Assembly: GCA_042408215.1 (NCBI GenBank)
Contig: JAYFMW010000020.1
Coordinates: forward strand, 128,001 to 192,000
Reading direction: 5' to 3'
From: Microcoleus sp.
GTDB taxonomy: Bacteria; Cyanobacteriota; Cyanobacteriia; Cyanobacteriales; Microcoleaceae
DNA length: 64,000 bases
The notes beneath the pieces were generated by a model that saw only the letters and a list, made by a program, of their open reading frames with translations, was not told the DNA's origin and searched no databases. Below are positions 2,216-25,600 of the stretch, piece after piece (the stretch's first letter is position 1; each line of letters starts with the position of its first letter). A program made the translations under genes and the position numbers.

Positions 2216-2371
2216 GGATTAAGATTTTTTTAACCACAGAGAGCGCAGAGGACGCAGAGGAAGAGAATGGAGAGATGTATCATTCTGATTTAATTATTAA
2301 AGATTAAGAATTGTTCCCACATCAGGTTGCTGTCTTTAATCCAAAATCTCAAATCTAAAATCTAAAATAGT

Positions 2372-3556
2372 ATGCTCGGACTTATCAAACCATTACAACA
2401 GTTAAGGCGCAGAACTCCTCTCGGATGGCTGCAACTTAGTCACGACAAAGGGCGAATGGCCGTAGCTATAGCGGGAATTGCTTTTGCTGATGTTTTGATG
2501 TTCATGCAGTTGGGCTTCCAAAATGCGCTTTACACCAGCAATACGCGGCTGCACCAAACTTTGCAAGCTGACTTAGTTTTAATCAGCCCCCAAGGCCGGA
2601 ATTTGCTAAATTTGTCTTCTTTCCCTAGGCGCAGATTGTATCAGGCTATGAATGTACCGGGTGTGAAATCTGCCGAGCCGCTTTATGTCAAACTTGCTAA
2701 CTGGAAAGTTCCCGAAACTCGCCGCGAAACGTCCATTATGGTGGTGGGTTTTAATCCCGATCGCCCGGCGTTTGATCTCCCAGAAGTTAACCAAAATTTG
2801 AGCGCTATTAAATTGCCCGATACTGTGTTATTTGACCGAGCTGCAAGGGGAGATTATCAAAGAGCGATCGCCCAAATCAATCAGGGAAAATCTGTTAAAA
2901 CTGAGCTCGATCGACGCACCATTACGATCGGCGGCTTGTTTACAATTGGAGCATCTTTTGCCGCCGATGGAGCTTTAATTACCAGCGATCAAAATTACCT
3001 GCGCTTGTTTCCCAAACAAAATGCCGGGAGTGTTAATGCCGGATTAATTCAATTGCAAGCTGGTGCCGATCCTGTACAAGTCCAACAAGTTTTAAAAGCA
3101 TATTTGCCGCCGGATGTCAAGGTACTTACCAAACAAGAATTTATCGAGTTCGAGAAAAATTATTGGGCTACTAATACTGCGGTCGGCTTTGTGTTTAACT
3201 TAGGCGTAGCGATGGGTTTCGTTGTAGGAGTAATTATCGTTTACCAAGTCCTCTCAACCGATGTCAGCGACCACATGGCAGAATATGCTACTTTTAAAGC
3301 AATGGGCTACCGCAATATTTACTTGCTAGGCATCGTTTTTGAAGAAGCTTTAATTTTGTCAATTCTCGGTTTTCTGCCTGGAGTGGGAGTGTCTGTAGCA
3401 CTTTACACCTTAACTCGCAGAGCTACAAATCTGCCCATATACATGACACTAATGCGAGCAATTGTTGTGTTAACTTTGACTCTAATTATGTGCGGTATTT
3501 CGGGAACTATTGCTACTCGCAAACTTCAAGCAGCCGACCCCGCAGACATTTTTTAA
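2372..3556 (+). CDS. devC: DevC-family ABC exporter permease (FtsX-like)
   Basis: RRTPLGWLQL...AGIAFADVLMFMQLGFQNALY; C-terminal KLQAADPADIF. Confidence 0.93.
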   Translation: MLGLIKPLQQLRRRTPLGWLQLSHDKGRMAVAIAGIAFADVLMFMQLGFQNALYTSNTRLHQTLQADLVLISPQGRNLLNLSSFPRRRLYQAMNVPGVKSAEPLYVKLANWKVPETRRETSIMVVGFNPDRPAFDLPEVNQNLSAIKLPDTVLFDRAARGDYQRAIAQINQGKSVKTELDRRTITIGGLFTIGASFAADGALITSDQNYLRLFPKQNAGSVNAGLIQLQAGADPVQVQQVLKAYLPPDVKVLTKQEFIEFEKNYWATNTAVGFVFNLGVAMGFVVGVIIVYQVLSTDVSDHMAEYATFKAMGYRNIYLLGIVFEEALILSILGFLPGVGVSVALYTLTRRATNLPIYMTLMRAIVVLTLTLIMCGISGTIATRKLQAADPADIF

Positions 3557-3902: not shown

Positions 3903-4629
3903 TAGCGTATAGTCTCTTCCCCAGCAATCTTACAAGAAAGAGCCACTATTAAGAGCTGTTTGATTCACATTATAAACCACTCCCAAGTAGTTATTCCCAG
4001 ACTTAATCGCCGTTGATGCTACAGCAGTTGCACCATCTAAGATGACATTAACTGACTCAAAGGTTAGTTGACTGAAAGTGACACCAATCAACTTGATTTT
4101 ATCGTCGGAAGTGAAGTCAGCGATCGCATCAGCTTGAGATGGGTTAGTAGCCGTATATTGTAACACAAAGGTATCCTTTCCTGCACCACCGGTGAGCACA
4201 TCGAAACCTCGATCGCCCCACAATTCATCATCGCCATTCCCACCTATCAAAACATCATTTTCCTTACCCCCGCGTAAGAGATCGTTACCCTCGCCACCAG
4301 TGACAGTATCGTTGTCATTATTTCCACTCAAGAAGTCATTCCCATTACCACCAGACAATTGATCCGATTTTTTCCCCCCAAACAAGTTGTCGTTACCATC
4401 ACCGCCATCAATGGTATCAGCGCCTTCGTTACCATAGATGATGTCATTCTCGGCACTTCCCGTCAATTTATCATTACCTGATAAGCCGAATATAGGTTTA
4501 CCAAATGCTGATTGTGGGATACTGGTGTCATCATTATCACTCAGTAGATATTGGTTATCTACCACTTGATTTTGTGGGAAATTAGTTGGTTCACCGCGAT
4601 CGATATTACCGACTGATGGTGTGTTAATT

Positions 4630-4790
4630 GCGATCGCCGTGGGTGTTACCGATGGTGTCGGTGTTACCAATGGAATTGGTGTCGGTTGCGGTGTTACCGA
4701 TGGAGTTGGTGTTACCGATGGTGTTGGTGTTACCGATGGTGTTGGTGTTACCGATGGTGTTGGTGTTACCGGTGGTGTTGGTGTAGTATT
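4630..4790 (-). repeat. 18-bp tandem repeat encoding (TPTPSV)n Pro/Thr linker
   Basis: GGTGTTACCGATGGTGTT-type units repeated in tandem. Confidence 0.9.
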
Positions 4791-4899
4791 TGTATTGACT
4801 ACCCCCACATCCGTCACATCAAAGCCACTGTATTTAGCATCGGTAGAAGTCGCACTCCCTGTGATAATTTGATAAGCAATATCACCATCAAATACGGTA

Positions 4900-7800
4900 T
4901 CATCTACTCCTGTTACTGTGACTGTTTGTGCTACATTCCAGTCGATCGGTGTGAAAGTAACAGTTGATTTATCTACAATACCTTCGGTAGTTTTGCTGCT
5001 AGTTAATGGAATGGTGACATCGGCTGTTGGCTGAGTGTTTAGCTTGACAGTAAATGTGGCTGTTCCACCCGCTTCTGTGGTGGTTAATCCGGTGGTTGGG
5101 CTGACTGTGATTCCAGCAGTTTCGTTGTCGGTGTTGGTGACAGCTACATCGGCTGGTTTGAGATTTTTGTAGTTGGTATCTGTCGTAGTTGTGTCAGCCG
5201 TCGTCAGAATTTGATAGGCTTGATTTCCGTCAGCAATTGAGTCATCTACTCCTGTTACTGTGACTGTTTGTGCTACATTCCAGTCGGTCGGTGTGAAAGT
5301 AACAGTTGATTTATCTACAGTACCTTCAGCGGTGTTACTGCTAGTTAATGGAATGGTGACATCGGCTGTGGGTTGCGTGTTTAACTTGACAGTAAATGTA
5401 GCTGTTCCGCCTGCTTCAGTTGTGGTTAATCCGGTGGTTGGGCTGACTGTGATTCCAGCAGTTTCGTTGTCGGTGTTGGTGACAGCTACATCGGCTGGTT
5501 TGAGATTTTTGTAGTTGGTATCTGTGGTAGTTGTATCAGCCGTCGTGAGAATTTGATAGGCTTGATTTCCGTCAGCAATTGAGTCATCTACTCCTGTTAC
5601 TGTGACTGTTTGGGGAGTATTCCAGTTAGCATTCGTGAAGGTGACACTGTTTTTATCTACAATACCTTCGGTAGTTTTGCTGCTAGTTAATGGAATGGTG
5701 ACATCGGCTGTTGGTTGCGTGTTTAGCTTGACAGTAAATGTGGCTGTTCCGCCTGCTTCTGTGGTGGTTAATCCGGTGGTTGGGCTGACTGTGATTCCAG
5801 CAGTTTCGTTGTCGGTGTTGGTGACAGCTACATCGGCTGGTTTGAGATTTTTGTAGTTGGTATCTGTGGTAGTTGTGTCAGCCGTCGTCAGAATTTGATA
5901 GGCTTGATTTCCGTCAGCAATTGAGTCATCTACTCCTGTTACTGTGACTGTTTGTGCTACATTCCAGTTATTAGGTGTGAAAGTAACAGTTGATTTATCT
6001 ACAGTTCCTTCGGTAGTTTTGCTGCTAGTTAATGGAATGGTGACATCGGCTGTTGGTTGCGTGTTTAGCTTGACAGTAAATGTAGCTGTTCCACCCGCTT
6101 CAGTTGTGGTTAATCCGGTGGTTGGGCTGACTGTGATTCCAGCAGTTTCGTTGTCGGTGTTGGTGACAGCTACATCGGCTGGTTTGAGATTTTTGTAGTT
6201 GGTATCTGTGGTAGTTGTGTCAGCCGTCGTCAGAATTTGATAGGCTTGATTTCCGTCAGCAATTGAGTCATCTACTCCTGTTACTGTGACTGTTTGTGCT
6301 ACATTCCAGTCGGTCGGTGTGAAAGTAACAGTTGATTTATCTACAGTTCCTTCGGTAGTTTTGCTGCTAGTTAATGGAATGGTGACATCGGCTGTTGGCT
6401 GAGTGTTTAACTTGACAGTAAATGTAGCTGTTCCACCCGCTTCAGTTGTGGTTAATCCGGTGGTTGGGCTGACTGTGATTCCAGCAGTTTCGTTGTCGGT
6501 GTTGGTGACAGCTACATCGGCTGGTTTGAGATTTTTGTAGTTGGTATCTGTGGTAGTTGTGTCAGCCGTCGTCAGAATTTGATAGGCTTGATTTCCGTCA
6601 GCAATTGAGTCATCTACTCCTGTTACTGTGACTGTTTGTGCTACATTCCAGTTATTAGGTGTGAAAGTAACAGTTGATTTATCTACAGTTCCTTCGGTAG
6701 TTTTGCTGCTAGTTAATGGAATGGTGACATCGGCTGTTGGTTGCGTGTTTAGCTTGACAGTAAATGTAGCTGTTCCACCCGCTTCAGTTGTGGTTAATCC
6801 GGTGGTTGGGCTGACTGTGATTCCAGCAGTTTCGTTGTCGGTGTTGGTGACAGCTACATCGGCTGGTTTGAGATTTTTGTAGTTGGTATCTGTGGTAGTT
6901 GTGTCAGCCGTCGTCAGAATTTGATAGGCTTGATTTCCGTCAGCAATTGAGTCATCTACTCCTGTTACTGTGACTGTTTGTGCTACATTCCAGTTAGTCG
7001 GTGTGAAAGTAACAGTTGATTTATCTACAGTTCCTTCGGTAGTTTTGCTGCTAGTTAATGGAATGGTGACATCGGCTGTTGGTTGCGTGTTTAGCTTGAC
7101 AGTAAATGTAGCTGTTCCACCCGCTTCAGTTGTGGTTAATCCGGTGGTTGGGCTGACTGTGATTCCAGCAGTTTCGTTGTCGGTGTTGGTGACAGCTACA
7201 TCGGCTGGTTTGAGATTTTTGTAGTTGGTATCTGTGGTAGTTGTGTCAGCCGTCGTCAGAATTTGATAGGCTTGATTTCCGTCAGCAATTGAGTCATCTA
7301 CTCCTGTTACTGTGACTGTTTGTGCTACATTCCAGTTAGCATTGGTGAAGGTGACAGTTGATTTATCTACAATACCTTCGGTAGTTTTGCTGCTAGTTAA
7401 TGGAATGGTGACATCGGCTGTTGGTTGCGTGTTTAGCTTGACAGTAAATGTGGCTGTTCCACCCGCTTCAGTTGTGGTTAATCCGGTGGTTGGGCTGACT
7501 GTGATTCCAGCAGTTTCGTTGTCGGTGTTGGTGACAGCTACATCGGCTGGTTTGAGATTTTTGTAGTTGGTATCTGTGGTAGTTGTGTCAGCCGTCGTCA
7601 GAATTTGATAGGCTTGATTTCCGTCAGCAATTGAGTCATCTACTCCTGTTACTGTGACTGTTTGTGCTACATTCCAGTTATTAGGTGTGAAAGTAACAGT
7701 TGATTTATCTACAGTTCCTTCGGTAGTTTTGCTGCTAGTTAATGGAATGGTGACATCGGCTGTTGGTTGCGTGTTTAGCTTGACAGTAAATGTAGCTGTT

Positions 7801-9577
7801 CCACCCGCTTCAGTTGTGGTTAATCCGGTGGTTGGGCTGACTGTGATTCCAGCAGTTTCGTTGTCGGTGTTGGTGACAGCTACATCGGCTGGTTTGAGAT
7901 TTTTGTAGTTGGTATCTGTGGTAGTTGTGTCAGCCGTCGTCAGAATTTGATAGGCTTGATTTCCGTCAGCAATTGAGTCATCTACTCCTGTTACTGTGAC
8001 TGTTTGTGCTACATTCCAGTCGGTCGGTGTGAAAGTAACAGTTGATTTATCTACAGTTCCTTCGCGTAGTTTTGCTGCTAGTTAATGGAATGGTGACATC
8101 GGCTGTTGGTTGCGTGTTTAACTTGACAGTAAATGTAGCTGTTCCGCCCGCTTCAGTTGTGGTTAATCCGGTGGTTGGGCTGACTGTGATTCCAGCAGTT
8201 TCGTTGTCGGTGTTGGTGACAGCTACATCGGCTGGTTTGAGATTTTTGTAGTTGGTATCTGTGGTAGTTGTGTCAGCCGTCGTCAGAATTTGATAGGCTT
8301 GATTTCCGTCAGCAATTGAGTCATCTACTCCTGTTACTGTGACTGTTTGTGCTACATTCCAGTTAGTCGGTGTGAAAGTAACAGTTGATTTATCTACAGT
8401 TCCTTCGGTAGTTTTGCTGCTAGTTAATGGAATGGTGACATCGGCTGTTGGTTGCGTGTTTAGCTTGACAGTAAATGTAGCTGTTCCACCCGCTTCAGTT
8501 GTGGTTAATCCGGTGGTTGGGCTGACTGTGATTCCAGCAGTTTCGTTGTCGGTGTTGGTGACAGCTACATCGGCTGGTTTGAGATTTTTGTAGTTGGTAT
8601 CTGTGGTAGTTGTGTCAGCCGTCGTCAGAATTTGATAGGCTTGATTTCCGTCAGCAATTGAGTCATCTACTCCTGTTACTGTGACTGTTTGTGCTACATT
8701 CCAGTCGGTCGGTGTGAAAGTAACAGTTGATTTATCTACAATACCTTCGGTAGTTTTGCTGCTAGTTAATGGAATGGTGACATCGGCTGTTGGTTGCGTG
8801 TTTAACTTGACAGTAAATGTAGCTGTTCCACCCGCTTCAGTTGTGGTTAATCCGGTGGTTGGGCTGACTGTGATTCCAGCAGTTTCGTTGTCGGTGTTGG
8901 TGACAGCTACATCGGCTGGTTTGAGATTTTTGTAGTTGGTATCTGTGGTAGTTGTGTCAGCCGTCGTCAGAATTTGATAGGCTTGATTTCCGTCAGCAAT
9001 TGAGTCATCTACTCCTGTTACTGTGACTGTTTGTGCTACATTCCAGTTATTAGGTGTGAAAGTAACAGTTGATTTATCTACAATACCTTCGGTAGTTTTG
9101 CTGCTAGTTAATGGAATGGTGACATCGGCTGTTGGTTGCGTGTTTAGCTTGACAGTAAATGTAGCTGTTCCACCCGCTTCAGTTGTGGTTAATCCGGTGG
9201 TTGGGCTGACTGTGATTCCAGCAGTTTCGTTGTCGGTGTTGGTGACAGCTACATCGGCTGGTTTGAGATTTTTGTAGTTGGTATCTGTGGTAGTTGTGTC
9301 AGCCGTCGTCAGAATTTGATAGGCTTGATTTCCGTCAGCAATTGAGTCATCTACTCCTGTTACTGTGACTGTTTGTGCTACATTCCAGTTAGCATTGGTG
9401 AAGGTGACAGTTGATTTATCTACAATACCTTCGGTAGTTTTGCTGCTAGTTAATGGAATGGTGACATCGGCTGTTGGTTGCGTGTTTAGCTTGACAGTAA
9501 ATGTGGCTGTTCCACCCGCTTCAGTTGTGGTTAATCCGGTGGTTGGGCTGACTGTGATTCCAGCAGTTTCGTTGTCG
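4900..9577 (-). repeat. Tandem array of ~14 near-identical 342-bp coding repeats (114-aa Calx-beta/cadherin-like beta-sandwich units)
   Basis: Equivalent positions at 4918, 5260, 5602, 5944, 6286, 6628, 6970, 7312, 7654, 7996, then (+1) 8339, 8681, 9023, 9365; unit DNETAGITVSPTTGLTTTEAGGTATFTVKLNTQPTADV...WNVAQTVTVTGVDD. Confidence 0.97.
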
Positions 9578-12551
9578 CTAATTATTACACTTTGGTTTAG
9601 GGTATTTCCTAATGCGATTCCTGTGGACTGGTTGCTAATTATTAAAGTAGCGGTTTCCGTACCTTCGGCAAGTAAATCATCATTAACTGTAATGGTTACT
9701 TGTCCTGTATTACTACCATTTGGGATGGTTATTTGAGTGGTAATAGCACCAGTAAAATCAGCCGCATTCGCAGTACCAGTTAATGCTAAATCAATGGTTT
9801 GATTGCCGACGACATTACCTTCAGCAGTGGCGGTAAAGGTAATAGCTGTTGTCCCGGCTTCACTAGCAGTAGTTGTGCTGGCACTGAGGTTAACTTTCGG
9901 TGCGGGAACGGTGATATTAAAGGTAGCTGTGTTGGAAAGGTCAACACCAGTATTGGCTATACCACCGTCATCTTGCAGTTGCACGCTAACGGTGGCAGTA
10001 CCGGGTTTACCACTGGGAGTGTAAGTCAGCGTGCCATTGGTTGCTACACTGGGTTGAGCGGTAAATAAGGTATTGTCGGTGTTAGTAACGGTGTAGTTGC
10101 TAACTGTTTGAGTTGATTCATTCGCTGGGCCGAAGATAACAGTATTTGCCCAGCCGCTAACTGTTTGAATTGTGTTTGTCCATGATGTTAGGGTTTGATT
10201 GCTTAAGTTACTGAAACTGGGTTTGTCGTTGACTGGATTGACAGTGATGGTGAGGGTTTGGGTGGCGGAGGTATCAACACCTGGAGTGCCGCCACTGTCT
10301 TTTACTGTCACATCAAAGGTGGAGGTGCCGTTAGCATCAGCCGCAGGAGTGTAGGTGAGTTGACCGTTAGCATCTACGGCCGGCCCTGTCGCAAATAAGC
10401 TGGGGTTGCCGATATTGGTAACAGTGTATGTCGCTGTTTGCGTGGCTTCATCCGTACCCCCTCCTCGATTAAAGGTCGCCCAACCCGCTACTGTTTGTAC
10501 CCCAGCGTCTTCGTTGACTGTTGGGTTGGTGGCGGTGAAACTGGGAATGTCGTTGACGGGGGTAACGGTGATGGCGGCGGTGTCGGTGGCGACGCTGAAA
10601 GCCGTATTACCGCCGTTGGTAGTGGTGTCTGCGGTGCTGCCGTTAGTGCCTGTCATTTGATCCCAGGCGCGGAAGGTGATGCCGTTGGTGATAGCACCGT
10701 TGTAGTTGGCGTTGGGTTGGAAGTAAATGCGGGTACTGCCATTAGCCGCAAGTAAGCGGGCACTGGTAGTGGATACTGCGCCCAATGCGTTCCAGTTAGT
10801 ACCGCCATCCGTGGTATAAAACCAACTGCCATTAGTTGTGTTGGCGGCGGTGATGGCGAGGCCTGCTACTGGGCCGATGTCGGGATCTGTGATGTTATTT
10901 TGACCTGTACCGATGGCCGTAATGGCAGAGATCAGGGTGCCGACAGCGCCGATGGGAGTACCGGAGTCTTCGAGGATATTGCTGAGAGTGACAACGGTAT
11001 CGGCGAGGACGGGAGCGGTGTTGATGCTGCCGTAGACATCTTCATTGTCCTGAGTTCGTCCTTGACCGTTGGTAGGGGTGTTGCCAGTAGCGTTAGCGCT
11101 GTTGTTGCCGATGAAAGTTGCTCCTAATGATGTGACCAAGGGTACGGTGGTTGGCATTTGAAGGTTGTTGCCATTGGTGTTAGTAGTGGAGGCCATAACA
11201 AATATTGCGCCACCCTTGCCTTGGCCAGGATTGAGACCCGTGCCACCTGTGGTTGAGTTATTAGTAAGGGCGGTATTATTCAGAATTAAAGAGCCACTGC
11301 GGATGAATATGGCACCCCCTAAGCCAGCACCACCGCCACCCAGTTGGCTAGCCCCACCGCCAGCCCCACCGCCAAAGCCAGCAGCACCAGCCCCGAAAGT
11401 GCCTGATCCTCCACCGCCACCATAACCGCCCTTACCTGCGGAAGCGTTTCTTGCGCCACCGCCGCCACCACCAAAACCCCCAGCGCCGGCACTACCACCG
11501 CCGTACTTACCACCACCACCACCACCAAAACCCCCAGCGCCGGCACTACCACCGCCACCACCACCTGTCCCACTAGCACCAGCGGCTCCGCCAGCGCCAC
11601 CGAATGCCCCGCCAGAGCCACCGACAGAGCCAATACCGTTGCCGCCGAAGCCACCGCCGCCTCCGTTGTTGACGGAGACACCGGCACCGAACATCCCGCC
11701 ACCGCCTCCGCCAGAGTAGGTCCCGACACCATTCCCACCGATCGCCTGATTGTTGGAGAAGGTCACATTATTCAGGCTCACCGTACCGTTATAGATAAAG
11801 AGTCCGCCCCCCATACCAGCACCACCGGCAGCCCGATTGCCCCCATTACCACCTTGGGCGCGGCCTCCAGCTATAGTCATGTTGGAGAAACTAACGGTTC
11901 CCGACTTCACAAAGAAGGGGCGAACATCACCCGCGTTATTTGTAGCGCTATTATCCGCATCCCCGCTCAGGCTAAAACCGCCACCGATAAAGCTGATATT
12001 GCTGTCAATTAGAACCTGGGGAGCGGCTGTAAATCGGACATTAGTAGTAAGGGTAATAGTGTCATCACCGGCTGCGGCATTCGCATCTAAAATGGCTTTG
12101 CTCAATGTGCCGGCTACAGTGCCGGTGCCATCATCGGTGGCAACCGTTACATCGTAATTCGCCAGTGTATAGTCATAATCTGCCATCGCCTCCTGATTAA
12201 AGGGCACGGCGGCTTCTATTTGGCCAGTTGCTATTTCTAAATCCCAGTCGCCACCCTTAGCTTGATTCCCGGTTTTATTAGTAGAGGAGGCAATATCAGC
12301 ACCCGTTAATTGATGCAGATTTTGGATAAATTGTGGTCCCGTTTGTCCCGCGCCGACATCGCAACCATAGAGGAGGATATCCCCATTTTTAGTTAAGGCT
12401 TTACCCCACTGTTGAATTTTATTACTAAATTGCGCTAAATCCTGATTATTAAGGGTATCTGAACCTAGTTTTAAACTACCTTCGCTCCCGTGAGAAAGGA
12501 TATGAATTGCTTCAATATCTTTTTCTCCTGCCAAGGCTTTTGTAATTTGAT

Positions 12552-12598
12552 CGATGGCGCTAAAATTTTCATTTTAAATGAAAATTTTAGCGCCATCG
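12552..12598. repeat. 47-bp palindrome (perfect 23-bp arms, 1-nt centre at 12575) inside the adhesin 5' coding region
   Basis: CGATGGCGCTAAAATTTTCATTT-T-AAATGAAAATTTTAGCGCCATCG. Confidence 0.97.
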
Positions 12599-12918
12599 GC
12601 GTTTTTGATAAGGCTTTGATAATCTTGTACTGAGGAGTCTACGAAAATAATTTGCTTGTTCATGTTGGGTACGTTCATAATTGCTGAAATTCTTGATATC
12701 TATCGTTTACATTCAAGTCCGGCTCTTGTTGAAACCCCCGCCTCAAAGCTTAATATCAAATCCGGTGGTATTGGAATTGATATTGCCCACAGTCAGGAAA
12801 CGGCAATGCCGTGTCCCTACAATTAATCGGGCGATGGTTACATCCGAAGGAGGACTAATGATTATTTGGGGGTAGGGAAACGGCATTGCCGTGTCCGATA
12901 TTGCTCAGGTTTTACGGT

Positions 12919-13740
12919 TTATTTAGCTTTCGCTACAATCGCACTAGCGCGGCTATTTGTTGCCTCTGTCCAAAAAGATAAGCCATCAAATCGCTCAAAC
13001 AAATCGGGAGGTAAAATCGTTGTTCTCGGTTTAAACTCTACTTGAGAACGCACTTGATGTAACCCTTTTGTTTGCAGTCTATTATCAAATTCTGGCTCTT
13101 CATATTGAACATTCTCGAAATCATGCTCGAAAGGCTCTTCGCCCAGAAATTGATAAATTAATGACATAGTTTTAGCCGGCCCTTTGGTTAATAGATCGTA
13201 ATCTACCAGTAGAAGAGATGCACTCTGTTCGCTGTAGAATGCTTCTTTCAGGGCGTTATAGGCATAACCCACTAAACGCGAACCTTGACTTAATGCTTCG
13301 GTACGGCTATAAACTGTAGCCCGTTCTGCTGGATTATTAAATAACCTGGAAACATCAAAGGCGTTGCGCCGAATTAGTAGCTCGATGCTATCCATAATCC
13401 AAGCGATATTTCTGACACAACAGATAATTTTAGCTTCAGGAAATAGTTCCCGAATTAATGGCAGTTTGCTGCACCACAGGCGATTGGTGTCGAAGATTAT
13501 TTCTTTGTCAACTTGCGGGTGGTAATAGGCAGAAAAAATGCTCAGAATCAGCGCTCTTTTTTGTTCCTGTGAAATAAATACGGAAAACTCATTGTCTTCG
13601 CTCATGGCTTCTAACATTCGCTCTACTAAACCCCCCACTGGGCTAGTCATGGCCGCGTGAAACCGGGGATTTTGGCGCAATAAAGCGGCCAGTAAAGTAG
13701 AGCCTGAGCGTGGTAGTCCTGAGATGAAATGGGCTTTCAC
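12919..13740 (-). CDS. PAPS-dependent sulfotransferase family protein
   Basis: 5'-PSB motif FISGLPRSGSTLLAALL; KIICCVRNIAWIMDS 3'-PB-like motif; LLVDYDLL...IYQFLG. Confidence 0.88.
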   Translation of the reverse strand: MKAHFISGLPRSGSTLLAALLRQNPRFHAAMTSPVGGLVERMLEAMSEDNEFSVFISQEQKRALILSIFSAYYHPQVDKEIIFDTNRLWCSKLPLIRELFPEAKIICCVRNIAWIMDSIELLIRRNAFDVSRLFNNPAERATVYSRTEALSQGSRLVGYAYNALKEAFYSEQSASLLLVDYDLLTKGPAKTMSLIYQFLGEEPFEHDFENVQYEEPEFDNRLQTKGLHQVRSQVEFKPRTTILPPDLFERFDGLSFWTEATNSRASAIVAKAK

Positions 13741-14287
13741 TGACCTTGCGTTGCAATGGGGTTGTATAAATCATATGCGAGGTAAATATATCATAGTAAG
13801 GGCATATTTTTTGAGATTATATGTTTATTTAATATTTCTTAACACAACCTCAAGGTTTACGATATCTTTATAATCTAGACATGGTGAGTAGGGACACGGC
13901 ACTGCCGTGTCCCTACTTGGGATTTCTAGATTGTGTAACAGTTAAAAAAGCCAAAGTTCGCAAAAATTAAGGATGAAAAGATCATTTCGCGATTGAAATC
14001 GGGGCAACCACGGCTGGGCTGTTTCATTCTTTGTAGGGGCAATCCCTCGTGAAGAGCCCCGACCGCTGAAACAGCAGATTGTGGATGGGGAGGGACGGGG
14101 TACGACAAGAGTCAAAATCCTGATTTCCCTGAGAATGAAACAGCCCTGGGGCAACCACGGGGGATTGCCCCTACACAAACTTTCGTCCCTCTCTGCGGAG
14201 ACTAAGAAATAAGGGGGTATTTAAGCCGGATTTGGGATCGGTCATTTTGAGGACTTTAGTCCTCACTACAAACCTCACTTTTAACTT

Positions 14288-15004
14288 ATGAAATCCACTA
14301 ATATCAACCCAACAACTAACAAATTACCGATTTCTGAGCCGGTAATTTCTCTGCACAAACTCGACCACTACTTCGGTCAAGGTCAACTGCGAAAACAGGT
14401 ACTTTCTGACATAAACATAGAAATTAATGCAGGTGAGATTGTGCTGATGACCGGGCCTTCTGGTTCAGGAAAAACAACGCTTTTGACTTTGATTGGCGGA
14501 CTGCGATCGGGTCAATCTGGAAGTCTCAAAATTCTTGGTCAAGAGATGTGTCATGCGAGTTCAGATAAATTGGTAAAGACGCGGCGCAACATTGGCTATA
14601 TTTTTCAGGCGCACAACTTGCACCGCAGTTTAACAGCACTACAAAACGTGCAAATGGGTTTGGAAGTTCACGGCAATTTGTCGCGTTCCGAAATGGGCGA
14701 TCGCTCTGCAAAAATGCTAGAATTAGTAGGACTGGAAGAGCGGATTAACTATTATCCAGATGACTTGTCAGGGGGACAGAAACAAAGAGTTGCGATCGCC
14801 CGCGCTTTGGTTAGTCATCCGCAAATTGTTTTAGCTGACGAACCAACAGCGGCCCTGGACAGCAAATCCGGTCGCGAAGTGGTGAATTTGATGCAGAAAC
14901 TTGCCAAAGAGCAAGGTTGTACTATTCTGTTAGTAACCCACGACAATCGAATTTTGGATATTGCCGATCGCATTATTCATCTGGAAGATGGCAAATTAGC
15001 ATAA
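14288..15004 (+). CDS. devA: DevA-family ABC exporter ATP-binding protein
   Basis: Walker A GPSGSGKTT, LSGGQKQRVAIARAL, LADEPTAALDSKSG, VTHDNRILD. Confidence 0.93.
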   Translation: MKSTNINPTTNKLPISEPVISLHKLDHYFGQGQLRKQVLSDINIEINAGEIVLMTGPSGSGKTTLLTLIGGLRSGQSGSLKILGQEMCHASSDKLVKTRRNIGYIFQAHNLHRSLTALQNVQMGLEVHGNLSRSEMGDRSAKMLELVGLEERINYYPDDLSGGQKQRVAIARALVSHPQIVLADEPTAALDSKSGREVVNLMQKLAKEQGCTILLVTHDNRILDIADRIIHLEDGKLA

Positions 15005-15154
15005 ATAGTTATTTGTTAGTTGTTAGTTGTTATTTGCGGTGCCCTGAGCGTAGTCGAAGGGTTATTGGTTATTTGCGGTGCCCTGAGCGTAGTCGAAGGG
15101 CACCGCAACTAACCAATAACAACTAACCAATAACAACTAACCCATAACTCATAA
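15005..15154. repeat. Heptamer repeat tract with two embedded small dispersed repeat copies (TGCGGTGCCCTGAGCGTAGTCGAAGGG)
   Basis: TAGTTAT/TTGTTAG and AACTAAC/CAATAAC units flank a direct duplication; a related CCCTGAGCGGAGTCGAAGGG occurs at ~52223. Confidence 0.7.
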
Positions 15155-16192
15155 CTAATGGGTAACAACCAATCCTTGGCGGTAAATCCCCAAATTCTTC
15201 TGATACATTGCTTCGAGTTTGGGCATCGAGGATTCCACAGAACCGCCAAAACGCCGAAAAGAAGGCCAGATGTCAGCGAGTTTTTTCACTGCTGACGACC
15301 ATCGACCCGCTTCTATATCTCCTAAGGCACCTTGTTCTCGGATTAATTCTATAGCTACAAGGTCTTGATTTTGCGGGCTGAAATCGTTGACACCAAATTT
15401 TTGGGCGAACCTGTCCCAGGTGGTGCTGAGAAACTGATATCGCCCCGCTGCGTCGGAACAGAGTTTTTTGCCGTAGCGGCGGCCGCACTTCATTTCCCTG
15501 GGATGGTCACTGAAACTGGCAAATTTGGTGCCGGTGTACTGAGTGCGGTAGCCATCGGGTGTAGCGGTGCCTTCGGCGGCGGCGATGGTGTCGAGAAAGG
15601 CTTTGACTCGATCGCGCTCGATGTTATGCTCTCCTTTGTCTGGTGACTTCAGCGTTGGAGTTTCCGGCTGTCGATCGCCCTCAATGTTATGCTCTCCTTT
15701 GTCTGGTGCATCGATGGCTGCAACGGACGGCCGGCGTTTCGGGGCGGGCGAGCTTTCTGCCGAGACTGATTGTCCCCACAGTCTGGGGGTGATTCGACTT
15801 AAGAAAAAACAAAAACAGATGCACAAACTCCAGGAGAGTTTAAAACCGAGGCGTTTGGGGCGTTTAGTGCTCACCACCGGCCACCCGTACATGGGGATTG
15901 CTGCGGGCAAAATTCCCGTTTGCTGACCGAAGGCGAACAGCGATTTCAGCGCTAGCAAAGTTTGCTTGCAGAGACTGGGTGCAAGTTTGTGAGCTCTCAT
16001 CTGCGCGGCGAAAGTCTCGACATCTGCCAGAGTAACTTGTGCTAACGGTTTTTCTACAAACAGCAGAAACTGGTTTGCCACCAGCCTGCTAAAGCCCTGG
16101 CTGCGGGGGGCTTGGCGCTTTACCCACAGACGAATTAGCTCGATGTCGTCCATAGGGTAAAGATGGTTTTCCAGATGTTCTTGTGCGTACAA
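15155..16192 (-). CDS. Fusion protein: N-terminal tyrosine-integrase SAM-like (core-binding) domain, hydrophobic segment, C-terminal lambda-type lysozyme (GH104)
   Basis: C-term RVKAFLDTIAAAEGT...FSDHPR...SDAAGRYQFLSTTWD...DFSPQNQD is lambda R-like. N-term DIELIRLW...FLLFVEKPLAQVTLADVETFA...LAPS...LLALKSLFAFG resembles cyanobacterial integrase N-termini. AGGAGG RBS lies 5 nt before the TTG start. Confidence 0.82.
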   Translation of the reverse strand: MYAQEHLENHLYPMDDIELIRLWVKRQAPRSQGFSRLVANQFLLFVEKPLAQVTLADVETFAAQMRAHKLAPSLCKQTLLALKSLFAFGQQTGILPAAIPMYGWPVVSTKRPKRLGFKLSWSLCICFCFFLSRITPRLWGQSVSAESSPAPKRRPSVAAIDAPDKGEHNIEGDRQPETPTLKSPDKGEHNIERDRVKAFLDTIAAAEGTATPDGYRTQYTGTKFASFSDHPREMKCGRRYGKKLCSDAAGRYQFLSTTWDRFAQKFGVNDFSPQNQDLVAIELIREQGALGDIEAGRWSSAVKKLADIWPSFRRFGGSVESSMPKLEAMYQKNLGIYRQGLVVTH

Positions 16193-19511: not shown

Positions 19512-22500
19512 TCACCCAACAGCCACCTTAACCCCACCCCCAACAAACTGCTCGTAATCCGTCAACAACCACTCCGGCAAACAAGTATTAGCATCCTCCA
19601 CCCGCAACTGTCCAGCGCGACAAAACAGCATCGCAGCTAACAAATAATTCACAGCTTTCGGCCTTCCAAACCCTAGACTTAACTCAGCAACTAACGAATT
19701 AAAAACAGCACGTTCCGTTTCATTCAACGGCTCGTTAATAAACCCACTAGCGAGCATTGCTTTGTAACCTTTACCGAAATCGCTCCGGTACAAAACTTCT
19801 AGTTGTTCCTCGGAAACACTCACCCACAAATCAGAAATTTGCTGGCGAATTTGCCGCAAATCTGCTATCACCAATTCCGCCGTCGGGTCGATCTTATAAA
19901 GATTGATACCAGCAGTTAATTGATTGATAAATTGCGGCAGATAATCTTGTTTAACCAAGGTTTGTTCTGTTTGAGCCAATGCACTTTCAAACACCTTTTC
20001 GTAATCGTCAATCAACCACTTTGGCAAACGAGTGTTAGCATCGGGAACCCGCATTTTACCAGGCACAAAATACAACATCGCACCCAACAAAGAATTGATA
20101 GCTTGCGGATGCACTAAGCCTTTGCTAATTTCAGTCAACTGCTCCAAAAACTTCTGTTCGGCGTCAGTCATTGATTCTGCTTGCAAGCCAGATTTAAGTA
20201 TTGCTTGATATCCTTTGCGAACTTCGCCTTGATAAAAAGTTTCCAGTTTTTCTGGCGGAACAGTTAGCCAAAAATCCGCCAGTTGTTTTCTGATTTGGCG
20301 GAGTTCCAAAACAACTGATGCGTCAGATGAATCAATGCGATAGAGATTAACGCATCCTAATAATTGATTGACAAACTGCGGGGATTGAATGTATTGAGCT
20401 AGCAAGTCAGAACTCGATTGGTAATTGACAGCATTCTCTGGCTCAAAAACTTGTTCGTAATCGCCGATTAACCATTGCGGCAAACGGTTGCGAGCATCGG
20501 GAATTCGCATGGTTTCCGGTGGGAAATATAGCATCGCTGCGAGCAGGGCATTGAGAGCTTTGGGATGTACTAATCCTTTGCTAATCTGGGTTAATTGCTG
20601 CAAAAATCTTTGTTCGTCTTCCATCATTGGTTGATGTTGAAAGCCGGAAGCTAGCAGAATTTGGTAGCTTTTTCCTGAATCGCCTTTGTAGGCATTTTCT
20701 AGATTCTCAACGGAAACGTTTAGCCAGAAATCGGCTATTTGTTTGCGGATTTGACGTAATTGTGAGATGGCTGATATATTGGAGGAATTGGTTTGGTAGA
20801 GTTTGACGGTATTCAATAGGCGATCGCCCAAAGTGGCCGGTTTGGGAATGCTATCCTGTAGGATGCGGGATGTTGCTTGGTGGCTGGTTTGCCATTTGTG
20901 AAAGAGTTGTTGAAATAATTTTGCGATCGCCCCTGAATATGCAACACTATCAAAACAAGCGGGATTGGCTTGCATTTTCTGCTGAATTTCCTGGCGATAG
21001 CGCTGCCGCAATTCAGGATTAGTAGCGAGAGTAACGGCTAGCTGAATATAAGATGCTTCGCTATGGGTAATTAAATCTGGCATTTGTAATTCCCGCAGCA
21101 TCGCCGAACCTTGCCGAAACCGCAAAGCATTTCCTTCCACAACCACCGTCGGTAATCCTACTTGCAAAGGATCGATTAACGATGTCGCCCCAGCGTAAGG
21201 ATAGGAATCGAGATAAACATCTGCTAGCTGCAAAAATTCTTTCACATCTGCGCGACTAGGCAGTTGTTTTACGAACCGCAAACGGTTGTTATTCACGCCG
21301 TATTTAGCGCATACAGCATTCAGATTGTTGACAAAAGGTGTGATTGGATAACTGCGAGTCCAAGCGGGGCCAAAGGGATATAAAATCAAGATTGAATTAG
21401 GTACTGACGCTAAAATCTTTACCCAAGTTTCTCTCAATTCCGGTAGAATTTTATAGAAGTTTGCGCCGGAGATAAAAACTGTTGTTTTGTCGTCTATTCC
21501 CAGACTTTTGCGGGTAGGTTTAACTGTAGCAACTTCCGATTCCGTTGCATATTTGAAACAAAAACCACTGCCTTCAAGAGTAGCTAATTGTTCCCGATAT
21601 TGTTCTTGATATGTAGCATCAGGAACCGTAAAGTTTCCCGCAATGTAGTAATCCATGTGCCTGATTCCCGTGGTAGTCGGGGAACAGAAAGATGTCGTTT
21701 GTACCCGCGCCAAACGGTGCATTGCTAGTGAAACCAACGGTTTGTTAACAGCAGTTAAATTAGTACCAAAAAACAGGATATCTAAGTCATCGGCGCGAAT
21801 TGTTTGGACTTGAGTTGCAAAGTCTGTGGGGAGTGTCACTAGCTTATCGGCGCGACTTTGGCAATACTGTTCTAATTGGTGTCCGTTGGTGTTGAGCGCA
21901 TAGAGAATAATCTCGAATTGGTTGCGGTTTAAATGCTCGAAAACCGGGATGGTGGCGAAGGTTTCGGTTTGGGGTGTGAAATGGTCGTTGATGATGCCGA
22001 GGCGGATTTTTGTCCGATTTGGCGATCGCCCTGGGAAGATACAATCAATGGAACTACCGCGACTTTTGAGTGCAAACTCGATAATATCTGCCCGTTTGGT
22101 GTAAAGATCGCGCAGGTTTGCAGTTGTGAAGTACAGCGGGATAAAGTTAGCAACTTGGGAGAAAAAGAAAGCAATGTTTTGCCAAAGTTGGGCATCGGGA
22201 TTTTTGAAGATATTACTATGAATGTAATTCACCCATCCTTGGATATATTGATAGTAATTGTCTGCTTCTCCGATGTTTTGAAATAAGTTCGGAGAGGCAA
22301 ACATAAATTTGAGATAGTCGTTGGCAAACCAGTTGGGAATTTGAGCGCGATCGTACTTAAGTGGCAATTGATCGGCGCGTCGGTACAACATGGCTGCTAG
22401 CAGGTAATTGATGGCTTTGGGGTCATTAAATCCTTTGGCAATATATGCTGTTAGTTCATTGACAAAAGTCTCTTCTGTATCCGTTAGCGGTTCATATTTA

Positions 22501-22622
22501 ATTTCGCTATTTAGCAATAATTGGTGAAGTTTTCCTGTATCACCTGCATAGGCTGATCGCAAGTTGTGCAGGGGGCAAATTGAGCCAGGTATCGGCAATT
22601 TGTTTGCGAGCTTGGCGGACAT
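19512..22622 (-). CDS. C-terminal part of giant glycosyltransferase: GT41 (O-GlcNAc transferase/HMW1C-like) domain plus helical repeats; joined to upstream ORF by a frameshift near 22562
   Basis: KIRLGIINDHF, IRADDLDILFF, RLARVQ...TTGIRHMDYYI, DVYLDSYPYAGATSLIDPLQVGLPTV. Confidence 0.85.
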   Translation of the reverse strand: MSAKLANKLPIPGSICPLHNLRSAYAGDTGKLHQLLLNSEIKYEPLTDTEETFVNELTAYIAKGFNDPKAINYLLAAMLYRRADQLPLKYDRAQIPNWFANDYLKFMFASPNLFQNIGEADNYYQYIQGWVNYIHSNIFKNPDAQLWQNIAFFFSQVANFIPLYFTTANLRDLYTKRADIIEFALKSRGSSIDCIFPGRSPNRTKIRLGIINDHFTPQTETFATIPVFEHLNRNQFEIILYALNTNGHQLEQYCQSRADKLVTLPTDFATQVQTIRADDLDILFFGTNLTAVNKPLVSLAMHRLARVQTTSFCSPTTTGIRHMDYYIAGNFTVPDATYQEQYREQLATLEGSGFCFKYATESEVATVKPTRKSLGIDDKTTVFISGANFYKILPELRETWVKILASVPNSILILYPFGPAWTRSYPITPFVNNLNAVCAKYGVNNNRLRFVKQLPSRADVKEFLQLADVYLDSYPYAGATSLIDPLQVGLPTVVVEGNALRFRQGSAMLRELQMPDLITHSEASYIQLAVTLATNPELRQRYRQEIQQKMQANPACFDSVAYSGAIAKLFQQLFHKWQTSHQATSRILQDSIPKPATLGDRLLNTVKLYQTNSSNISAISQLRQIRKQIADFWLNVSVENLENAYKGDSGKSYQILLASGFQHQPMMEDEQRFLQQLTQISKGLVHPKALNALLAAMLYFPPETMRIPDARNRLPQWLIGDYEQVFEPENAVNYQSSSDLLAQYIQSPQFVNQLLGCVNLYRIDSSDASVVLELRQIRKQLADFWLTVPPEKLETFYQGEVRKGYQAILKSGLQAESMTDAEQKFLEQLTEISKGLVHPQAINSLLGAMLYFVPGKMRVPDANTRLPKWLIDDYEKVFESALAQTEQTLVKQDYLPQFINQLTAGINLYKIDPTAELVIADLRQIRQQISDLWVSVSEEQLEVLYRSDFGKGYKAMLASGFINEPLNETERAVFNSLVAELSLGFGRPKAVNYLLAAMLFCRAGQLRVEDANTCLPEWLLTDYEQFVGGGVKVAVG

Positions 22623-25600
22623 TTCCTAGTGCAGATAAATCAGCAGAATTTTTATGATATTGCTCAATAATGCTTAACAAAGAAGCTTGACTCTGAGTCG
22701 AAATAGCAGGTAATTGCTGTTTGCTACCACAGGCTTGTATCAAAGCATCACTAACTATTTTTGCCATTTTTGACCAAGAGAAGTTTTTAGCTTGTTCCAA
22801 ACCAGCAGAAATTAATGATTGGCGAATCTCAGGCTTTTGAACTTCAATTAGTGCCTGTTTCAATCCTTCAACATCTTCTGAGTTCACATACAAAGCTGCT
22901 TGACCAGCCACTTCAGGAATTGAACTATTTTTACAGGCAATCACTGGACATCCGCAGGCGATCGCTTCCAGTATTGGCAATCCAAAACCTTCATATTTTG
23001 ATGTTTGAACTAATGCTACAGCACCGGAATAAGCGCTTTTTAACTCGTTGTCGTTTAATTTTAGTAGGTGAAAGTTGATGTCAGAAGTGTATGCTTTTAA
23101 CTCTGTTTCTAATACGGAGTTACCGCCTACGCATACCATTTCAAAGTCATGTTTACTGTCTAATTGAGCAAAGGCTTTGAAAAACAATATAGCATTTTTA
23201 TAACCGTTAAATCCGATGCGATCGCCCACCCACAAAAAGTATGGTTTTGAGATGCCGTATTTCATCTTAAATTGATTAACTTCGACAAAGGTTAAGGGCG
23301 AAAATCCTTTGTCAATGCCACAATGGGCTACTGTTACCGACTCACGATAAATTTCAGGAAAGCATTTTACTAAATCGCGGGCAGTATTTTCAGAAATCGC
23401 TATGTATGCAGAAGCGTGACGAATACCATGATATTTTTCTGTCCACATTGGGTTAGCTAGATTAGCTCCCATGACTTCTGGAATCATGTCATAAGCCATG
23501 AATACAGATGGTGTCGAGCGCGGTGTGGTATAGTAAGTGGAAATAAACAAATCCGCTTGTTCTTCATCGCAGATTTGCTGCAACATTTCGCGATCGCCTT
23601 CCGTATTACTATAGTCATAGGCTGGGACTTGCCGATAATTGATCCCGGCAATTTTGGGAAAAGTTCCATTGCGATCGAGTACGAGGATGTGCTGGCTGAA
23701 ACTCTGAGTTGCCCATTCTGTAATTAATGATTGCCAGACACGGGTAATTCCAGACTTGTGAATCTGAAACATTACGCCGTCAATGATAATTTTTATCGCA
23801 GGTTTCGCTTCTGTATTACTCGGTTTTTGTGCAGTTTCATTAGACAAGAATACAGCCGGAAGTAAGTTAATTACTTTGGCAGAGGTGCTGCATTTCAATC
23901 CTTCTTTAATTTGGGCGATCGCTGAATTTCCCTCTCCTTTAGCAATCATGGAATGCGCCATTTTCAAAGCTTCTATCGCATAATGTTCTCTCGCCTGATT
24001 TGATAATTCCTCAGCACTCTCTTTTGGTAAATAGGATTGGGAAATTTCGATCGCCTTTCTAGCCTCTGCAATATTTTCACCCGCTTGAAATAAGCGAGAT
24101 GTCCATGATGAAGAGTTCATCCGCGTACAAGCAAAAGTTTGAGGCTCATACCACATCGGATAATACACTGAAATTCGTTTCCACATTTCCCAATCAGCCG
24201 CAGCACCAGCCTGGGGGCAAAATCCACCCAACTCCTCATAAACGCTACGCTTAACTACCATAGAAGCCGCCGCAATCCAAGAATACACAGCCAGTTTTTT
24301 GATCCAGTCAGTTAAAATCCCAGGAGTTTCCCTTTCCAAAGGTGATAACCATAAAGGCGCATTTTCTTCATTAACATGGAGACAGCGACAGAAAGCAGCA
24401 CCAATTGTTAATTGTTTTTCTATTGATTCCCGAAGGCTGCGATAAAATCCAGGCTTGACAAAATCATCATCGTGCAGAATGTGCACCCATTGACCGCGTG
24501 CTTGCTGAATGCAAATATTAAAAATGGCAGTTTGACCAACATTAGTTTCAGAATGCCGATAAAACTTTATGCGATCGCCAGCCACTTTTTTGATAATTGC
24601 TGCTATCTCAGCTTGAACTGACTGACTCGGATGATCGTTGACAACTTCAATCTGCATTTCATCGGGAAATGGAGCTTGTTCAATAACACTCCTGAGCGTT
24701 TGTTCTAGATATTTTTCCTTCAGATTATAGGTCGGTATCATCACCGACCAAAAAGGTCTTTTATTGCTTGACGAGACAGGCGAAATTGTCGGAAATTCAA
24801 ATTCAGAAGATGTTTTCATGGTCAAGTTTTGATGTGATAAAGCCAATTGGCGCGAATCCGAGCCTGAAATCAACTGTTGTAATAACTGAGTATAATTTTC
24901 ATCAGTAATTAACATAATATTTTGAGGCTGGTCTGTTTTGGTCAACAACTCAGTTTTGACAAAGGTTTTGAGCTGTTCGTGCCAGCCGTATCGCTCGGCG
25001 GTATATAATAGCGATCGCGCAGCTTTCAGATACTCACCTTTTTGCAAGAGAGCCTGACGAATCAAGGTAAAATAGAAGTCAAAATGAAGCGGCATTTTTT
25101 GGTTAAATCGGCTTCGCGCTGCGGAAAATCCTTGAATCAGAGCAGTATAAGCACATTCTACTACCTGTTCTATTGGGCAAGCCGTCATTTCTAAAACTTG
25201 CTCCGATGACTGTTGCGAATATTCCAAATCGTGGGCGATCGAAGCATATACTGATGTAGATGCTAGCAACAACTGAATCATCGGTAACGGTTTAGCCCAA
25301 TCTGTTAATGCTATTTGCGTTACGCCACTCGAACAGCCAATTAAAAGAGAGCAATACTTAGTTAACTCCGCATTTTCGCGTAGCGTCAATACACTACCAT
25401 CAATAATACGTGTATCTCCTGTGGTAATTTTAATGTGAGATGACAGAATAATAGTGCAATCGGGTAAGCGAGACAGTAGCCCTTGAGCAACAGACAAAGC
25501 GTATTCTGGCTTCACAAAAGACTGACTGCTACTACTCGTATACTCAAATAAAATTACATGACTGCGTTTCAGCAAATTGTGCTGTTCAGCAAAATTGCGA

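Follow-up and report, generated by a model that had tools for sequence, protein, structure and literature searches.

A palindrome in the DUF4347 codons of giant Microcoleus proteins as a candidate recombinase-free sense/stop switch

The stretch of DNA that we analysed (the window, 64,000 nt) covers positions 128001-192000 of contig C20 in the 7.36-Mb, 30-contig genome of a Microcoleus species. It contains a giant gene on the minus strand, in which an in-frame TAA lies at the centre of a perfect palindrome. The gene has the following features, in window coordinates.

12676-12678, minus strand: second ATG, with no conservation among paralogues
12661..12663, minus strand: likely start codon ATG, kept in five of six paralogues, the sixth having GTG
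12163..12651, minus strand: DUF4347 domain (Pfam match), split by the centre stop; predicted alpha/beta caspase/legumain-like fold
12552..12598, strandless: perfect palindrome (23-nt arms) over codons 23-38 as numbered from ATG 12663
12574..12576, minus strand: centre codon, TAA here; the complementary state is TTA (Leu30)
8047..12573, minus strand: open frame after the stop, 1508 codons; DUF4347, Gly-rich region, Ig/cadherin-like repeats and the first 114-aa repeats
4900..9577, strandless: 342-bp tandem array within the gene, 13.7 copies with 96% matches
8063..8066, minus strand: +1 frameshift, a second lesion; extra G in one 342-bp repeat unit
3930..8081, minus strand: remainder of the gene, +1 frame, 1383 codons; 114-aa repeats and C-terminal RTX calcium-binding repeats

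With the stop read as X, residues 10-172 matched the DUF4347 profile (PF14252) over its entire length (1-164 of 164) with 199 bits, compared with a gathering score of 24.6. RTX repeats (PF00353) were found in five stretches of the 3930-8081 frame (91.4 bits, gathering score 23), the best at 4383-4490. The original prediction described a 2,900-aa adhesin frame that was open except for the TAA. Instead, a +1 frameshift near 8065 splits the gene into 8047-12573 and 3930-8081; the repeat unit at this point reads ACTACGCGAAGG, and the repeat consensus reads ACTACCGAAGG. An uninterrupted DUF4347 N-terminus had also been expected from the TTA state. This expectation holds, but a flip at 12575 by itself would not restore a full-length protein from a copy that is frameshifted near 8065. 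The window's own copy is currently OFF and frameshifted, and may be a decaying member of its family.

Several features of the neighbourhood were recorded. Summed contig depth from four runs rose 10- to 20-fold at 12698-12904 and 13733-13939, and many contig joints and loose ends lay at ~12793-12871 and 13887-13916, with an inverted repeat (I7) at 13872-13932; the depth jump and the joints indicate high-copy dispersed repeats just upstream of the giant gene start. Genes for an HlyD-like adaptor, an FtsX-like permease and an ABC ATPase (a DevBCA/MacAB-type exporter set) lie at 785-3556 and 14288-15004, the set being interrupted by a sulfotransferase gene (12919-13740) as well as the giant gene. 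Positions 51-677 encode a TetR-family regulator. The minus-strand ORF at 15155-16192 (345 codons), whose C-terminal part has 28% identity to two copies in tandem on contig C6 (~918-920 kb), is probably a chimeric or degraded mobile-element gene. At 22540-22622 on the minus strand, two ORFs in different frames share 83 nt: 22540-26325, with glycosyltransferase families 2 and 4, and 19512-22622, with family 41. The protein sense is apparently continuous across the shift (...PPAQLA / AYAGDTGKLHQLL...); the overlap marks either a fusion gene of ~2,300 codons with a frameshift or an indel introduced in assembly.

The palindrome spans 47 bp (12552-12598), its two 23-nt arms (12552-12574 and 12576-12598) being 100% complementary around a single unpaired base at 12575, i.e. 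a 1-nt spacer. From ATG 12678 or 12663, the minus-strand frame reads ...KNADGAKIFI-TAA-NENFSAIDQIT, with MNKQIIFVDSSVQDYQSLIKNADGAKIFI ahead of the TAA and NENFSAIDQIT... after it. The stop occupies 12576-12574 and its middle base coincides with the palindrome centre, while the plus strand reads TTA at the same codon. The perfect arms, this reading of the frame and the intact version on the opposite strand had all been predicted, and were borne out by direct sequence check and translation. Both ATGs had been proposed as starts; conservation among paralogues supports 12663 and not 12678, which makes the centre stop codon 30.

The palindrome is in frame and codon-symmetric, such that left-arm codons are the reverse complements of their mirror codons in the right arm and the centre codon, T-N-A, is its own mirror. 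The arms have GC-rich outer clamps, and the inner 14 nt of either arm are AT-only. Folded as single-stranded DNA, the palindrome reached -25.4 kcal/mol compared with -8.6 +/- 2.3 for 200 shuffles (z -7.4; 0/200 as good), forming a 22-bp stem whose loop is the centre codon, and RNA folding gave an identical hairpin. Arithmetically, perfect 23-nt arms are expected at 4^-23 per position, or about 1e-7 per genome; the palindrome exceeds this chance expectation. Template-switch mutagenesis acts at inverted repeats with a short spacer and arms longer than ~9 bp, and the 23-nt arms and 1-nt spacer are of this kind.

An AlphaFold model was made for the first 180 residues of an intact paralogue (L003:1245-1784) from a 30-row alignment (mean pLDDT 90.8), giving an alpha/beta domain for the DUF4347 N-terminus. 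The part of the model that the palindrome encodes comprises strand beta2 (residues 26-30), a loop and the beginning of helix alpha2. Leu30, which ends beta2, was invariant in all 30 DUF4347 N-termini of the alignment. The centre TAA leaves 29 residues, and the next in-frame start after it is TTG 12534, from which the product would be without beta1, alpha1 and beta2 of the predicted fold. His58 (SHG motif) and Cys101 (YGC) were also invariant in the 30 sequences. The best PDB match to the model was chain G of 9qpe, a type VI secretion Hcp3-Tce1 complex (E 8.6e-6, TM 0.54), and the next matches were legumains and caspases; the model suggests that the N-terminus of the giant proteins may have a cysteine-peptidase or self-processing role.

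The genome encodes 15 DUF4347 N-termini, including a subfamily of six to which the window gene belongs. The palindrome lies at identical codons in all six (five perfect, one with five arm mismatches). The centre codon is TAA in four and TTA in two, namely one perfect copy and the imperfect copy. Three outer-arm sequences were present among the five perfect palindromes, and every difference (GATGGC/GATCGC, CTAAAA/CTCAAA and TTTTC/TTGTC) was mirrored on the opposite arm. The nine non-palindromic paralogues have Leu at the centre position and no stop, and only 2-8 of their 23 arm positions are complementary, which is the chance level. Across the genome, 11 distinct perfect palindromes have arms of at least 23 nt, and five of them are this site in paralogues. 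Perfect palindromes with a 1-nt spacer and arms of at least 13 nt number 106, and those in long reading frames were DUF4347 sites only.

Other palindromes and the placement of the paralogues were also noted. Two further palindromes flagged as being in stop/sense register were rejected as copies of a dispersed non-coding repeat. A dispersed non-coding palindromic repeat family with the core CTTCTT-N-AAGAAG, arms of up to 20 nt and ~40 perfect copies occurs genome-wide, and its centre base is A, T, G or C depending on the copy (e.g. G000:C22:38378-38418, C6:1012339 and C17:39930). The subfamily paralogues are paired: on C7 (G000:C7:1-18441) the intact 3612-codon copy ends ~850 bp upstream of the next copy, and C20:116000-140700 contains two copies 16.6 kb apart. 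Such pairing would promote gene conversion among them.

As assembled, each of the five copies with a perfect palindrome in this genome has one to three extra frame breaks, whereas the single imperfect copy is an intact frame of 3612 codons. Five of these breaks were examined, of which two lie within short homopolymers and the others outside them. This contrast is explained by decay following knock-out no less well than by a working switch. It is also in line with the palindrome being a functionless mutational hotspot, where template switching perfects the arms and introduces the TAA, knock-out is followed by decay, and the perfection of the arms reflects biased conversion and not utility.

The genus survey covered 79 genomes; a degenerate pattern in gene sense, allowing three mismatches at most, found 75 sites in 51 of them, and the reversed pattern, used as a control, found 0 sites. 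Across the family, matches were present in 56 of 144 genomes, which belong to 3 of the 15 genera, and the matching relatives include Microcoleus, Tychonema, Kamptonema and Oscillatoria. A shorter pattern, run on one genome from each of 16 further families of the order, had no match. Alignment of homologous 5′ ends demonstrated that the palindrome is kept in paralogues and orthologues and that both centre states occur. The original prediction had allowed for a one-off template-switch mutation, which is ruled out by the conserved palindrome and the recurrence of TAA and TTA in homologues. The centre base was T or A at all 75 genus sites and C or G at none, and the identical stop TAA at 24 of the 75 is not the pattern of a one-off nonsense pseudogene. 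Genus sites were distributed as follows.

0 arm mismatches (perfect, 23-nt arms): TAA 20, TTA 10
1-2 arm mismatches: TAA 3, TTA 5
at least 3 arm mismatches: TAA 1, TTA 36

These counts show that TAA is confined to perfect or near-perfect palindromes (one TAA among the 37 sites with at least three mismatches), with related loci in the surveys not being independent. On a tree built from the flanks with the palindrome masked, 14 independent perfect-versus-imperfect pairs lay on supported branches. Over 200 random pairings, TAA accompanied the perfect palindrome in ~10 of the 14, the opposite occurred in ~0.3 and the states were equal in ~3.7 (median sign-test p 0.004). The 75 rows required at least 21 state changes on this tree, compared with a mean of 20.6 (range 16-24) for shuffled labels, and the 30 perfect sites required 9 of a possible 10. 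The centre state is without phylogenetic signal, as at a hypermutable site uncoupled from phylogeny. Perfect loci were scattered among imperfect ones on the tree, which is consistent with a hotspot.

The exact perfect-core pattern also matched 26 metagenome contigs (18 TAA, 8 TTA) and 39 loci in named genomes, 30 of them already in the set and nine new (5 TAA, 4 TTA). Since these two scans are blind to imperfect sites, the perfect-versus-imperfect comparison is fair in the genus and family surveys only, and their records were used for haplotypes and close pairs only. In four relatives (L063, L090, L143 and L147), DUF4347 ends prematurely beyond the palindrome, and a second DUF4347-like start comes next (...QALIEDIALVGTTKKAIAFINPTVEDYQ...), an arrangement that is a tandem duplication of the N-terminal module.

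The 110 site records, which include a few identical copies, contained 14 distinct perfect arm haplotypes, and 8 of the 14 were found in both states. Arm positions that vary are compensated at six places (5, 7, 13, 18, 19 and 22 nt from the centre), as would be expected if the arms were kept identical by conversion. The original prediction had asked whether compensatory synonymous changes accompany the palindrome. Compensation was complete, and the changes are non-synonymous in either arm (R/A/T/G/S in the left arm, A or G in the right), and symmetry is therefore maintained at the DNA level and not via synonymous sites.

Two contigs from different assemblies (L058 and L065) were identical over 2341 nt save for the centre base, T versus A, and two metagenome contigs (L134 and L149) were identical over 913 nt save for the centre base. 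Together with the T or A at all 75 genus sites, these two pairs are variants in which the reverse complement of the spacer, and nothing else, distinguishes the states, as in spacer inversion. Four further near-identical clusters each had one state within them. L150 and L067 have a common asymmetry at +/-5 and a different centre base; under template switching, this pattern implies that both switch points lay no more than 4 nt from the centre, or that the two loci have independent histories.

The inner 18 nt of either arm were nearly invariant across the 14 haplotypes, as would be the case for a protein-binding site, and the flip could in principle be driven by an unlinked enzyme, either a nuclease or a recombinase, with specificity for the palindrome or its cruciform. 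However, the variable outer arms speak against a fixed site, and no recombinase was found near the loci examined in the window. The original prediction had likewise seen no intact recombinase. In agreement, Pfam searches of 10 neighbouring ORFs returned no recombinase above cut-off and only a sub-threshold integrase SAM-like fragment in ORF 15155-16192; NCBIfam gave no match for this ORF, and tblastn against the genome found no copy of it near the other palindrome loci. Furthermore, invertases are unable to synapse in cis at inverted sites 1 bp apart. A site-specific recombinase is therefore unlikely as the driver, and we consider an enzyme-driven flip in general to be very unlikely.

Assembly or sequencing error could also affect the centre base. 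Both states share canonical short k-mers, and if the truth were always TTA, an assembler picking the orientation at random would equally confine TAA to perfect palindromes, leave the state without phylogenetic signal and create pairs distinguished by the centre base alone. Indeed, Logan contigs (k=31) break at the palindrome: within 9800-16000 of the window, contigs of four runs end at 12516 and restart at 12637, with none across 12517-12636, and contigs from the best-matching run agree gap-free with the window where it is covered. However, by reasoning, the k-mer ambiguity is limited to k of 23 or less, since a larger k spans the centre and a flank base. TAA also occurs where there is an asymmetry no more than 12 nt from the centre (L081, L059 and L150), in L015 with five mismatches and in a complete 6.3-Mb chromosome (L069), and the source assemblies come from many groups and programs. 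A hairpin-related consensus error, which had been raised with the original prediction, is unlikely given the TAA in asymmetric contexts and in the complete chromosome, and an artefact of either kind has, in our judgement, a very low probability.

Selection downstream of the palindrome was examined by dN/dS (Nei-Gojobori) over up to 330 codons, using pairs with dS of 0.03-0.6 that are not independent of each other.

TAA/TAA pairs (n=33): median dN/dS 0.22
TAA/TTA pairs (n=85): median dN/dS 0.30
TTA/TTA pairs (n=61): median dN/dS 0.36

Lineages that now read TAA have evolved under purifying selection downstream of it. For OFF alleles this holds family-wide (0.22) but not for the frameshifted copies of this genome. 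Outside this genome, five of the six determinable TAA genes were otherwise single frames of 1357-2084 codons reaching the RTX repeats: L069 (in the complete chromosome), L116 and L071 with perfect palindromes, and L064 and L081 with near-perfect ones. The sixth, L065, has a broken frame, and L077 (TAA) is outside the determinable set. Perfect TTA genes outside this genome comprised two intact and one broken (L094), with two undeterminable. Imperfect TTA genes, including the intact copy of this genome, comprised 15 intact and three broken, with one undeterminable and one with too little downstream DNA. Frame breaks outside this genome were somewhat commoner in perfect loci (2/7) than in imperfect loci (3/19, including the two near-perfect TAA genes).

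These results bear on the hotspot explanation, which has the frame breaks of this genome and the scatter of perfect loci in its favour. Against it, dN/dS was no higher for TAA/TAA than for TTA/TTA pairs, and five of the six determinable TAA genes elsewhere are otherwise intact over 4-6 kb. In addition, eight haplotypes occur in both states and state changes on the tree are saturated, which requires frequent reversion and not one-way loss. We therefore regard a functionless hotspot as rather unlikely.

Purifying selection downstream of the TAA would likewise be explained if the stop were tolerated, with a 22-bp mRNA hairpin that presents the stop as its apical triloop promoting read-through, bypass or re-initiation, and the palindrome being kept for this reason. 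The RNA fold does place the stop in the loop of a perfect stem. However, such tolerance leaves the recurrent T<->A change on eight haplotypes, and DNA-level arm perfection with non-synonymous compensation, unaccounted for. No known recoding signals were seen, and re-initiation at TTG 12534 would lose three of the predicted secondary-structure elements. We consider this explanation very improbable.

We favour the reading, which we hold to be reasonably probable, that the palindrome is a self-maintaining, recombinase-free switch in DUF4347 codons 23-38 of a giant RTX-repeat protein family. Both strands read arm-centre-arm, so a nascent strand that has finished the first arm could switch to the opposite template by annealing to its identical arm, take the centre base from this wrong strand and then return (intermolecular template switching, 'spacer inversion'). 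The net product would be a change of the centre T<->A only, i.e. between TTA (Leu30, ON) and TAA (stop after 29 residues, OFF), and since this product is again a perfect palindrome, the step would be reversible. Where the switch points are asymmetric, the outer part of one arm would be overwritten by the complement of the other arm. Such overwriting would keep the arms perfect and spread mutations to both, giving compensated haplotypes without selection on each pair. The several paralogues of a genome would switch independently. We infer the template-switch step from the anatomy of the palindrome and the pattern among relatives, and likewise infer a rate of centre-base switching within a culture and selection for switchability itself. 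The original prediction of a switch thus agrees with the comparative pattern of the family (conserved palindrome, both states), but restoration of a full-length protein from the window copy would be precluded by the frameshift near 8065.

Aspects of the proposed switch are shared with known systems. Simple-sequence-repeat contingency loci vary by slipped-strand mispairing in an early, hypermutable coding tract, and include multi-copy surface-protein families whose members switch independently. They share with the Microcoleus site reversible ON/OFF control without a recombinase, an early coding position and a multi-copy family, although switching is here predicted from sequence. The differences are that the site is a palindrome and not a repeat tract, that the change is a stop/sense substitution and not a frameshift, and that the organism is a free-living cyanobacterium. 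In plastids, whose genomes are of cyanobacterial descent, hairpin loops between short inverted repeats flip repeatedly and homoplasiously; in contrast to the site described here, these are non-coding, have loops of several bp and switch no expression.

The closest mechanistic parallel is template-switch mutagenesis at inverted repeats (the Ripley model), which needs only the replisome, gives the exact reverse complement of the spacer, homogenises the arms and is reversible. In yeast coding DNA, intermolecular template switching with arm homogenisation and spacer inversion has been described, reversible by sequential events, for arms of >9 bp and spacers of 2-5 bp (PMC8604942). Reporter work in E. 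coli has likewise addressed template switching at inverted repeats and quasipalindromes (PMC7202029). The cases in these sources are sporadic, with spacers of 2-5 bp and arms of ~10-16 bp, whereas the site here has a 1-bp spacer and 23-bp arms, is conserved over three genera and many paralogues, and has as its two states the sense and stop forms of an invariant codon. Intragenic invertons are inversions within a gene by an invertase that add or remove a premature stop (PMC10028968). Their inverted repeats flank tens to hundreds of bp and they depend on a site-specific recombinase. In contrast, the segment here is one base, and neighbouring ORFs gave no recombinase domain above cut-off. In a search made mostly outside subscription journals, we found no paper that joins template switching at palindromes or quasipalindromes with phase variation, and among papers that mention DUF4347, none addresses palindrome switching.

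To our knowledge, nearly all described cases of phase variation are in host-associated bacteria and involve repeat slippage or dedicated invertases. In a free-living cyanobacterial lineage, plain DNA geometry appears to give the same outcome, the centre base being the middle of T-A/T-A. If true, this would be a phase-variation mechanism beyond slippage, invertases, gene conversion, transposition and methylation. We see an even chance that the palindrome represents a new class of contingency locus, in which selection acts on a coding palindrome for the ability of its centre to toggle sense and stop through template switching alone, the same process keeping the palindrome perfect. With up to five independent copies per genome, such loci would give combinatorial ON/OFF control of giant, putatively secreted proteins with a caspase-like domain in Microcoleus-type mat cyanobacteria.

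If confirmed, an in-frame odd palindrome centred on TWA or TSA would be a searchable signature of switchable genes, and template switching, usually seen as a source of damage, could be an evolved, self-maintaining regulatory device. Caution would also be due in annotation, where such genes are called pseudogenes, and in assembly, where contigs break at the palindrome. For the organisms themselves, the finding would mark the DUF4347 giant proteins as putative variable surface or secreted factors in mat-forming, partly toxin-producing Microcoleus.
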